A DNA stretch of 41,037 nt from a virus. Taxonomy: Duplodnaviria > Heunggongvirae > Uroviricota > Caudoviricetes. Below, one piece after another: positions 29,601 through 32,600 of the stretch. A program made the position numbers. The DNA lies in IMG/VR virus record IMGVR_UViG_2684623059_000003, positions 1-41,037 of that record, one strand, 5' to 3'. Positions within the stretch are counted from its first letter, which is position 1. Each line of letters begins with the position of its first letter.

Positions 29601-32600
29601 AGTGCCTGTAATGAAGTGACAAACTCACCTTCGCGCAAGATAAATCCGTCCGTGACCCGAGCATCCACAAAATTAATTAACGCAGCCCCATTCTTTCGCA
29701 AACACATAATGCGGTAATGACTAACAAGATTTCCATTTTCAACGCACACAGCATAGAGGCCATCTTCACAAAAAATTTTACGCAGTTCTTCGATGTTCAT
29801 CATCAGAATCCTTCCGGATAATTAGCTCTCCCCTTTAAGGGACCATCCCTCTTATCCCTGCGCGCTACTTAAGTATTTTTGATTCTATTCCGGCACCGTC
29901 CAGATCTTCAAACGCGTTGAAAATAAAAACAAAAACCCGCCGAAGCGGGTTAAGTGCGGGTGCGTTGAGGATGCCTGCCACATCAGAGGTGGCGAGGGAT
30001 TTCTCCCTCGCCGGGTCTCTTACTCCTCAGGTTCGTAAGCTGTGAAGACAGCGACCTCCGTCTGGCCGGTTCGGATTCGTACCTCGCAGAGGTCTTTCCT
30101 CGTTACCAGTGCCGTAACAATGACGGTTAAACAGATGACGATCAGGGCGATTAACATCGCCTTTTGCTGCTTCATAGCCTGCTTCTCCTTGCCTTTCGGC
30201 ACGTAAGAGGCTAATCTTCAGTTGTCGAGACATAAGACTGGCCTCACTTCGATTTATAGTCGGGTGGGGCTTTTCTCTATCTGCCTTTTGGTGTTCATGC
30301 CTGAGACAGATAGCCTCAAGCACCCGCAGCAATTCTACTTAACTATCCTTTTCCCGCAAATCGTTTTTATCCCCAGCGACAAATCGAATACACCACCAGC
30401 GCCACCGCCATTGCAATTCCCATCGTTGCGAATGCTTCAGGCCAGGTCATCGCAAAACATCCTCCGCACTTATCAGTTCGTTCCGCTTCAGGTAGTCCAT
30501 CGCCTTCTCCGGTAATTTGCAGTCTGGATTAGCTTTTTTCAGTTGACTGACCAGTCGTTTAACCCACATTGTTAATTCGCTAACCCGACTACTGGATGCT
30601 AGTAGGTTGTCGGCTTTACCCAGAATGACAGCACAGCAAGCCTCTTTGAGTACCCAGTCAACAGCGTCTTTCCATGCTCCGGTTTCGACTGGCGGATTTT
30701 CACGCTTAACCTGTTCATAGAAACGCACTGCTTTAATCAATCCTTCTGGTGTCAGTGGCACAGGTGTAGCGGTGAATAGAGGTTTAGGTGTTATCTCTGC
30801 ACGTTTTGCGTATGCTTCAACTGTGTCAGGATTAAACAGGATTATGTTTTCGCCGTATTCCCACGCTATCGGCTCTGCTTCCAGCGATGCCAGAGCAATT
30901 TTGAATAACTCACCCTCTACTCGTGCCACCCCTGAATTGGGGTGGCATTTCGCAATCGCTATTTTTAATTTAGCTTCTTCGATTAATTGCTCTTTTGTTA
31001 ATTCAGTCATTTTTCATTACCGCCCTTTCGGGCGGCCTCCTGATGTTTTGAGGGTGCAGGAATCCCTCCTGTTAAGGATTAAATTTTATTTACAGTGCTG
31101 AGATTAATTATTCAGATTTGAATTATGTTTTCTCTTTCACTTCACGCAGTCCTGATTGTTAATTTGGCTCACAGTACCACCTCCTGCAAACTTCCCTTCC
31201 AGAAAGCCAGCACGCGCTGCATAGTTTCGCTCTGACGGCACTCTCGGCAAATTATGTTCTGTCTCCTGTTGTAACGGCGTATCTCGCTATCTGGCAATGA
31301 ATAAACCAGGTCGGGGTCGTTCTTCTTTTTCACTGCCGCTCTCGACATTTTTTTGCAGGCTTTTATCCAGTCCTTACGAGCCTGTTCTGAAGGAAATATT
31401 CCATGGCCTGAACCATATAGCGTGCCACTAACTACCAGCTCTTTCGCCAGAACTTCTATCAGGTGTCTCGTTGCTCCGGTTTCATCCTCCAGTTGCTTAC
31501 GTGTTTTCCTCCCATCTCTGCGCACCAGTTCCACAATACGCGCCTTCAGTTGCTCCCGATATTCAGGTGTAAAAACGTTTCTCATAAGTGCCTCACCTTT
31601 CCGACACAACGCGACTGGAGGAATCGACAATCTGTCGGACAATATCCCGGTGTTTATTCAGCTCCCGCAGCGCGGCGCAGACGCGCTCCCACTTCTGGAC
31701 ATGATTTTTCGCCCGGCGCAGTTCGCGGTTTGCCAAATGCAGCGATGGTAAAATCAGGTCATCCGCCCGCGTTTCGGTGAACGATGGCAACGACTGCACA
31801 ATGTCCGCCACAGTTTCTGTTTTAATTTCTTCCTGTGTTACAGTTTCCTGTGCTGGTAACGCAACACCTGCTGGCTGAGGAAAGGCTTTACCATCAGTTT
31901 CCGTTACCAATGCGGCTTTCGGCTCTGCTGGTAAATTATCGTCCGGCATGCAGTAACGAAATTTACCGTTCTGATTTACGCGAATCAGGCGACCTTTGCT
32001 GATTGCCTGAGCCAGCGTTGAAGCCACTTTGCGTGATGTGGTACCGAACAACGTAGCCAGTTCATCCGCCGTTTGTGGTCCGCGTTGTTCAATCGTCGCG
32101 GTTAAATCGCACTCTGAGATTTTCGCTACTGTTGCTGTGGTGGTTTCTTCCGGCAGTTCTGCCTGCGCTGGCTGTTCCTGCTGAACGTTGTTATCAGCCA
32201 CACGCCAGGTGTACGCGCTTTTATCAACAAAACCAGCATTTTTCAGTTCCCATAGTTCGTTAAGCACTTCTTCACGACTGATATCAAGTCGCGCCGCAAG
32301 TTCTATGGATGTGGCTTTTCCCATTGCTTTCAGTGCGTCAAAAACAGTCTCCATTAAATTTTTTCTCCCGGTAAAAATTACTTCGTGATTCCTGGCTGGA
32401 CGACATTCTGGCGCCAGCTTTCCCAGTTAAAAGTCACCCAGCGCCCGCCGTTCATGGTCATGCGATCCATAATCCTCTCGCCGAGCAACGTTTTCATGGC
32501 CTCATAGTTCAGGTTTGTCAGCATCCCCATACTGCGCATCGATGCTGTCCGGCGATCAACAATCTGATGCAGCACCACCTGCTCGTTTTTCGTCTCACGC

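Follow-up and report, generated by a model that had tools for sequence, protein, structure and literature searches.

Ren-like and YdaW genes beside a mosaic cargo gene between the replication module and hok of a lambdoid prophage

Mutants of phage lambda in the gene ren were reportedly found by Toothman and Herskowitz in 1980 to be sensitive to Rex exclusion. Two-hybrid interactions of lambda Ren with the Rex proteins have been described in a study that calls Ren "likely involved in DNA replication" (bioRxiv 10.1101/2021.04.19.439022), and lambda ren is dispensable for replication, P-lethality and replicative killing (PMC3640518). A second early gene, ydaW of the Rac prophage of Escherichia coli K-12, was recovered in an overexpression screen as a blocker of the retron-Sen2 toxin RcaT (bioRxiv 10.1101/2020.06.22.160242), and YdaW is listed among the E. 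coli transcription factors of unknown function (PMC9308461). Here, relatives of both genes were analyzed in IMG/VR virus record IMGVR_UViG_2684623059_000003, the whole 41,037 nucleotides (nt) of which are termed the window. The locus under study comprises three open reading frames (ORFs) that lie between the replication genes and the toxin gene hok. The original prediction had placed three consecutive minus-strand ORFs at this position, and these were borne out as follows.

31593..32354, minus strand: ORF1, YdaW family (DUF1627), 253 residues; Pfam PF07789, E = 2.2e-95, and PHROG 630, E = 9.7e-129.
31169..31585, minus strand: ORF2, DUF977/LygF, Ren-like; Pfam PF06163, E = 1.8e-26, and PHROG 142, E = 2.8e-37.
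30447..31010, minus strand: ORF3, mosaic cargo protein of 187 residues; PHROG 660 (unknown function), E = 2.6e-77.

The explanation that we favor, with moderate confidence, is that this interval holds two conserved accessories of the replication module, a Ren-like protein (ORF2) and a YdaW protein linked to the helicase loader (ORF1), followed by a single cargo cassette that includes ORF3. Each of the alternatives weighed below is considered less probable. The earlier statement that none of the three could be assigned from sequence was overturned by the PHROG 142 match of ORF2; in Pfam, ORF1 and ORF2 are strong members of DUF1627 (317 bits) and DUF977 (93 bits), respectively. Each of the three proteins is 92-99% identical to deposited sequences and is a typical member of a catalogued family.

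ORF2 exceeds the gathering threshold of Pfam DUF977 (93.2 bits versus 22.1) and covers the whole profile. The winged-helix nature of DUF977 has been known since 2009 (PMC2686095). PHROG 142, annotated "Ren-like exclusion protein," was matched over nearly its whole profile both by ORF2 and by lambda Ren (NC_001416), the latter with an E value of 1.6e-41. Direct BLASTP comparison of ORF2 with lambda Ren gave an E value of 5e-8 in an alignment of the last 58 residues that includes the common motif ECRQSxxMxRVLA, and a DUF977 hidden Markov model (HMM) built without Ren recovered Ren at 22.5 bits through its C-terminal part only. Clear homology was thus found to a known nin-region protein, lambda Ren. 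The idea of an exclusion function survives because Ren has an exclusion phenotype, a known reason and not a new one.

The architecture of ORF2 consists of an N-terminal winged helix-turn-helix (wHTH) and a conserved C-terminal motif, E-x-R..N..ECRxS..M.RVLA. Columns invariant over the DUF977 family and Ren include G37, T39, E101, R103, N110, E115, R117, M122, V125, L126 and A127. The likeness to lambda Ren extends to membership of PHROG 142, the C-terminal ECRQSxxMxRVLA, the N-terminal winged helix and the position as last gene of the replication operon. The two genes differ in what follows them. The lambda sequence has a GC stem-loop and then a T-run between ren and ninB, which we take to be the terminator tR2; after ORF2, by contrast, there is a GC hairpin without a U-tract.

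Among its closer relatives, ORF2 is a typical member with no notable difference, being 60-99% identical to LygF/DUF977 proteins of Escherichia, Shigella and Salmonella prophages, and the RefSeq names of its homologues are "DUF977 family protein," "LygF" and "Ren-like exclusion protein." A literature search under the name lygF returned unrelated lysozyme papers and two Salmonella genome announcements only, and ORF2 had no match in PADLOC-DB. The protein is 138 residues long from its ATG (139 codons including the stop). A mechanical call runs to a TTG start and 157 residues, and the homologues all start at ATG and none at TTG. The earlier description of ORF2 as a basic protein of 139 residues with a CxxC motif therefore stands as to charge (isoelectric point 9.9) and motif (C113/C116), and its length is corrected to 138.

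A zinc site at the CxxC was considered for ORF2 and rejected. Such a site needs four conserved ligands, and the conserved cysteines are C113 and C116 alone, since C77 varies; moreover, individual homologues lose one of the two. The first cysteine of the CxxC is replaced by Phe in lambda Ren and in homologue P0299, and the second is replaced by Tyr in homologue P0322. ORF2 carries a second cysteine, completing the CxxC, that is not present in lambda Ren. Given that the motif is not kept in Ren and that further ligands are lacking, it is not read as a metal site.

ORF1 passes the gathering threshold of Pfam DUF1627 (317.1 bits versus 28.1) over profile positions 1-155 of 155. Its homologues form 2519 clusters, nearly all from Escherichia and Shigella, and the family is present in the temperate phages Shigella phage 75/02 Stx, POCJ13 and Rac-SA53. 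The two winged-helix segments predicted earlier for this 253-residue protein are supported by Pfam helix-turn-helix (HTH) matches below threshold (residues 4-46 and 84-130), by the units of an AlphaFold2 (AF2) model and by Foldseek. The AF2 model has a mean predicted local distance difference test (pLDDT) of 61, with 75-84 for the domains. Its predicted layout comprises a first wHTH as a three-helix unit (residues 1-43), a disordered acidic Gln-rich linker, a second wHTH (80-136), a second disordered linker and a long C-terminal helix (194-252), which probably forms a coiled coil. Foldseek of this model against the Protein Data Bank (PDB) returned generic winged-helix folds (MarR, ArsR, FeoC, ScpB), none with E < 1e-3. 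The MarR/ArsR-type curated cut-offs were not reached (HTH_Crp_2, 23.9 versus 27; MarR_2, 16.5 versus 27), and FeoC was the sole HTH family above its cut-off, marginally so (22.3 versus 21). In PADLOC-DB, ORF1 gave weak matches in the HTH regions only (E ≥ 4e-4).

ORF1 resembles YdaW of the K-12 Rac prophage in its DUF1627 membership (317 bits) and in its position after ydaV. The copies in K-12-like genomes (loci L006 and L007) match residues 1-151 of ORF1 only; by contrast, the window copy is full length and includes the C-terminal helix. In the YdaW homologue P0122 (296 residues), a 43-residue insertion repeats the recognition-helix segment of the first winged helix and represents an internal partial duplication. 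The proposal that the second wHTH of YdaW is a paralogue of Ren was rejected, the PHROG 142 match being weak (1.8e-5), the hhalign probability between the families being 0.2% and BLASTP returning nothing. A lead from DUF1627 to Pas small RNAs (sRNAs) was dropped, because Pas sRNAs adjoin lysis genes and not the ORF1-ORF3 interval.

To establish the gene neighborhood, the proteins of the window were mapped onto 80 IMG/VR loci encoding DUF977, of which 77 were informative for DUF977. These loci were used instead of genome contigs, a YdaW search of which gave 4 loci, too few for statistics. In the window, both genes follow a loader gene.

32378..33124, minus strand: ydaV-type DnaC/IstB-like helicase loader, the last core replication gene; PHROG 50 "DnaC-like helicase loader," E = 2.9e-83, and Pfam IstB_IS21, 1.3e-19.

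ORF1 is separated from ydaV by 23 nt and ORF2 from ORF1 by 7 nt, and the Shine-Dalgarno sequence of ORF2 contains the stop codon of ORF1, in agreement with the tight packing noted earlier for these two genes. Across the sample, the gene directly before DUF977 was ydaW in 58 of the 77 loci (gap 10-19 nt) and the O-like initiator in the other 19 (gap 43 nt), where neither a loader nor ydaW is found; at one locus (L064), DUF977 follows ydaV directly. DUF977 is the first gene after the replication genes, whatever precedes it, and closes the replication operon as ren does after P in lambda, where the order is P and then ren.

For ydaW, 55 loci were informative. The gene directly before it was a DnaC/IstB-like loader in 44 and a lambda-P-family loader in 11, the latter a 221-residue protein with a Pfam Phage_lambda_P match of 1.9e-16 (L018, L019, L029, L033, L045, L055, L071, L074, L076, L078, L079; also L089). 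With a lambda-P-family loader also found immediately before ydaW, the linkage of ydaW to the loader spans two unrelated loader families. The gene follows a helicase-loader gene of either family and is absent where the loader is absent. Loader and ydaW are missing even from modules whose initiator is 93-96% identical to that of the window and, since both are missing together in modules where the initiator leads directly to DUF977, the two behave as one insertion/deletion unit. In an O157 prophage the order is P, DUF1627 and then a different HTH protein; this "DNA-binding protein" was examined as a possible Ren-like protein and rejected, as it belongs to PHROG 323. The occurrence of DUF977 without ydaW in 19 loci and of ydaW without DUF977 in the O157 prophage shows that the two genes are separable.

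The direct initiator-DUF977 arrangement, with its constant 43-nt gap, was seen at loci that include L016, L017, L022, L024, L032, L041, L046, L050, L051, L053, L057 and L058. Further examples are L066, L068, L072, L080-L082, L084 and L085.

These data bear on two alternative readings of ORF1 and ORF2, to each of which we assign a limited probability. In the first, both proteins are winged-helix transcription regulators, for example of delayed-early or cargo genes, with no role in replication or exclusion. Such a role would account for the weak Pfam and NCBIfam matches to HTH families of the MarR, ArsR, TrmB, Crp and FeoC types, for the Foldseek matches to MarR/ArsR repressors, for the listing of YdaW among transcription factors (PMC9308461) and for the winged helix recognised in DUF977 (PMC2686095). 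However, the HTH matches lie below curated cut-offs apart from the marginal FeoC value, no regulatory role is known for lambda Ren, and a regulatory role leaves unexplained why the genes keep so strictly to a place behind loader or replication genes, whichever of two unrelated loader families is present.

In the second alternative, ORF1 and/or ORF2 are pure accessories of replication that tune helicase loading or limit loader toxicity, and the exclusion phenotype of Ren is indirect. The confinement of ydaW to positions behind loader genes, the constant place of DUF977/ren at the end of the replication operon and the published view of Ren as likely involved in DNA replication (bioRxiv 10.1101/2021.04.19.439022) are all consistent with this proposal. 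The dispensability of lambda ren for replication, P-lethality and replicative killing (PMC3640518) argues against it, as does the absence of ydaW from 19 related replication modules. We regard it as no likelier than a purely regulatory role.

The favored explanation, two replication-module accessories followed by one cargo cassette, can be expressed as the following model, in which the biochemical functions are those that we infer from the observations above. Translation of the DnaC-like loader gene would be closely followed by that of ORF1 and ORF2. ORF2, like Ren, would allow replication-dependent lytic growth to escape Rex-type exclusion or abortive infection by resident lambdoid prophages, acting through its winged helix and the conserved C-terminal ECRxS..M.RVLA helix. 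ORF1 would be a loader- or replication-associated binding protein and may possibly also shield replication from abortive-infection systems of the host. The cargo cassette, ORF3 together with a 27-residue peptide, would then be expressed via a GGAGG-hairpin-AUG leader and be followed by hok/sok; the leader may also mark the site that different cargo genes occupy.

A stronger joint form of this model, in which YdaW and the Ren-like protein are replication-module-linked counter-defense factors, is considered doubtful. YdaW would here mask the loader or replication intermediates from abortive-infection sensors, such as retron toxin systems, and the Ren-like protein would do likewise for Rex-type systems. 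If this were true, lambdoid replication modules would carry built-in anti-abortive-infection genes.

Several points weigh against the favored explanation. In direct comparison, the similarity of ORF2 to Ren is limited to the C-terminal ∼55 residues, and lambda Ren has 96 residues versus the 138 of ORF2, whose wHTH and C-terminal motif are set ∼40 residues further apart. No mechanism is known for lambda Ren itself. Next to its repressor this prophage carries DUF1391 and DicB-type genes and, unlike lambda, no rexAB, so that any Rex-like target must sit in another prophage. For ORF1, the generic wHTH matches fit a plain transcription factor equally well, hhalign of the YdaW and DUF977 family alignments gave a probability of 0.2% and hence no specific relationship, and the retron evidence is a hit in an overexpression screen that concerns K-12 ydaW only. 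The 80 loci were chosen via DUF977 and are mutually related, and so are not phylogenetically independent. Finally, the AF2 model of ORF3, built from a 40-sequence alignment, is unreliable (pLDDT 53).

ORF3 had been described as having no recognised family. This holds for Pfam, NCBIfam and PADLOC, none of which gave a match, and is superseded by the assignment to PHROG 660. A search of 1.84 billion representatives, clustered at 50% identity, identified 496 clusters that carry modules of ORF3. The modules are an N-terminal helical segment ending in ..ALASLEAEP, a variable segment, a core (residues 87-126) and a C-terminal helical segment (127-187). Pieces held in common with relatives are residues 1-131 joined to another tail, 44-187 or 51-187 joined to other heads, and 78-187 alone. 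Among 43 longer clusters, DUF551 was present in 9 and Ead/Ea22 in 5. The Ead/Ea22 (PF13935) and DUF551 (PF04448) domains were not found by Pfam in ORF3 and are carried by its module-sharing relatives only. Given that recombination joins its modules to DUF551 and Ead/Ea22 partners, ORF3 is considered a member of the shuffled DUF551/Ead-like early genes of lambdoid phages. It has in common with the Ead/Ea22 and DUF551 mosaic proteins the "...ALASLEAEP" N-terminal module, other pieces and module shuffling itself; unlike them, it matches neither Pfam model, and it is located in the early-right operon near hok. The model of ORF3 was kept out of the fold search because a pLDDT of 53 would make matches meaningless. 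A PDB sequence search gave nothing significant for ORF1, ORF2 or ORF3, and the best match, of ORF3 to DnaI 2w58 (E = 0.041), was judged to be due to chance. Our best guess is that ORF3 may form helical oligomers directed at a target in the host.

The region between ORF2 and ORF3 contains two features.

31011..31168, minus strand: AT-rich spacer of 158 nt between ORF2 and ORF3; GC 0.39 versus 0.51 for the window.
31020..31040, minus strand: portable leader, consisting of GGAGG (31036-31040) and the hairpin CCGCCC-GAAA-GGGCGG (31020-31035), 9 nt from the ATG of ORF3; from motif, folding and recurrence.

The first ∼107 nt past the ORF2 stop (31062-31168) are ∼86% conserved in 11 related loci, as judged by BLASTN of the downstream regions, and no promoter, terminator or Rfam match accounts for this conservation. 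In about 10 more loci, conservation of the spacer lies further along. The remainder of the spacer carries the leader of the cargo gene, and no promoter or terminator consensus was found on the coding strand of the spacer. The hairpin pointed out in the original prediction proved to be real: CCGCCC-N4-GGGCGG has one match in the window versus 0.01 expected, and its folding energy is -17 kcal/mol (z = -4.4). Its reading as an intrinsic terminator was rejected, as the stem is not followed by a U-tract on the coding strand.

The unit GGAGG-CCGCCC-GAAA-GGGCGG recurs before different genes in the fetched loci, and the exact 21-mer is found in more than 120 viral contigs (loci L090-L209), this count being a lower bound. 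Among the matches listed, a start codon lies 6-11 nt past the stem in 119 of 121 instances, and at least 10 unrelated N termini occur downstream of the 21-mer, with two main contexts upstream. The linear spacing of 22-27 nt from the Shine-Dalgarno sequence to the AUG is too long unless the stem forms. Judged from its sequence, the 21-nt unit resembles a portable leader for translation, a boundary for the recombination of cargo genes, or both. Structured Shine-Dalgarno-to-AUG spacers are present in phage T4 genes 38 and 25, and the likeness to these is the stable hairpin between GGAGG and the start codon. Unlike the T4 spacers, the present putative leader doubles as a junction common to unrelated genes. 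It fits the proposal that "short conserved boundary sequences" serve as recombination points in mosaic phages (PMC3029335).

Beyond ORF3, the interval up to hok contains three further elements.

30367..30450, minus strand: hydrophobic ORF of 27 residues, MTWPEAFATMGIAMAVALVVYSICRWG; its ATG overlaps the stop of ORF3 (ATGA).
30170..30325, minus strand: sok antisense RNA and leader of the hok mRNA; Rfam RF01794, 122 bits versus a gathering threshold of 59.
30020..30175, minus strand: Hok toxin gene, 51 residues; from translation of the ORF, and named hokD in the annotation of relatives.

Of the 45 matches to the 27-residue ORF in the fetched loci, most retain it intact; its partner in the ATGA coupling is an ORF3-type tail or a DUF551 gene with a GGAGGTG Shine-Dalgarno sequence. 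Across 24 nucleotide variants, its variable sites at codon positions 1, 2 and 3 number 11, 6 and 23, respectively. Given this bias toward third positions, the ORF shows the pattern of a translated gene. Its DNA occurs in about a fifth of complete E. coli genomes (1215 of 5426). It is unannotated in both RefSeq records that were checked, a few GenBank records name it "bacteriophage protein," and no PHROG family was found for it. It is a putative membrane peptide, predicted to be translationally coupled to ORF3.

The RF01794 match adjoins the Hok ORF, which identifies a hok/sok type I toxin-antitoxin locus. Downstream of hok (29930-30011, minus strand) there is a sub-threshold Rfam match to the sRNA isrK (25.7 bits versus a gathering threshold of 50; E = 0.009). 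A canonical intrinsic terminator, AACCCGC-TTCG-GCGGGTT with a T-run after it, closes this isrK-like stretch, for which a promoter-like site lies at 29911-29882.

Between the DUF977 stop and hok lie 1.2-4.2 kb in 47 related loci, and the ∼1 kb of the window is less than in any of them. A variable cargo slot therefore lies between the replication genes and hok, and ORF3 is the only one of the three ORFs within it. The original prediction had assigned all three to a variable cargo position. The slot exists as proposed; ORF1 and ORF2, however, are conserved with the replication module, and the three genes do not form a single block. What the original prediction observed was largely correct; its interpretation overstated how unified and how novel these genes are. 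AT-rich gaps had been expected on both sides of ORF3, and this applies to the spacer at 31011-31168 but not to the ORF3-hok interval (30176-30446), which has a GC content of 0.50 and is occupied by the 27-residue ORF and the sok/hok leader.

The related view that ORF1-ORF3 form one island of variable anti-defense or exclusion cargo with an undescribed function is unlikely. The variability of the slot that precedes hok, the exclusion phenotype of Ren, the blocking of a retron toxin by ydaW in the screen and the lack of an assigned function for ORF3 would all agree with it. Set against these are the synteny of ORF1 and ORF2 with replication genes in 77 of 77 informative loci, the separability of the two (DUF977 alone in 19 loci, ydaW alone in the O157 prophage), the weak HTH matches that are the most PADLOC yields, and the placement of all three proteins in catalogued families. 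That ORF3 is a decaying by-product of recombination without a function of its own, as its extreme mosaicism, many truncated relatives and poor structure prediction might suggest, is very improbable in view of the full-length 187-residue form kept at 84-97% identity in several lineages, the nearly invariant core (87-126; ≥90% conserved across 40 sequences), the junction motif ...ALASLEAEP, and the dedicated conserved leader and translationally coupled downstream ORF.

The window as a whole is a lambdoid prophage of the Rac/Qin (DicA/DicC/YdaT) type, and the ORF1-ORF3 interval is the tail of its early-right operon. The plus strand encodes a DicA-like repressor, DUF1391, DicB, an exonuclease and an integrase. 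The minus-strand genes run in the order DicC/Cro-like, YdaT/CII-like, O-like initiator, DnaC/IstB-like loader (ydaV), ORF1, ORF2, ORF3 and hok/sok, beyond which lie two small genes, DUF968/HNH, RusA and Q. A matching order, ydaU-ydaV-ydaW-lygF-(hypothetical genes)-hok, appears in the annotation of E. coli genomes and of phage Rac. Given that the closest protein matches (96-99% identity) come from Escherichia albertii, this species is probably the host. As mechanically called from a TTG start at 34150, the O-like ORF shares 74 nt (34077-34150) with the end of the YdaT/CII-like gene. PHROG 391 aligns to this ORF from residue 35, and its true start probably lies further downstream of the TTG.

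The novelty of these assignments is low, as the families are catalogued and the link between ORF2 and Ren is already present in public annotation. By itself the finding matters little, since these are common genes of Escherichia and Shigella prophages in existing families. What value remains is that of a pointer: no mechanism is known for Ren, for YdaW or for the DUF551/Ead-like cargo proteins, all of them very widespread, and the linkage of ydaW to the loader, the closing of the replication operon by DUF977, the portable leader and the conserved 27-residue peptide are patterns that can be tested.

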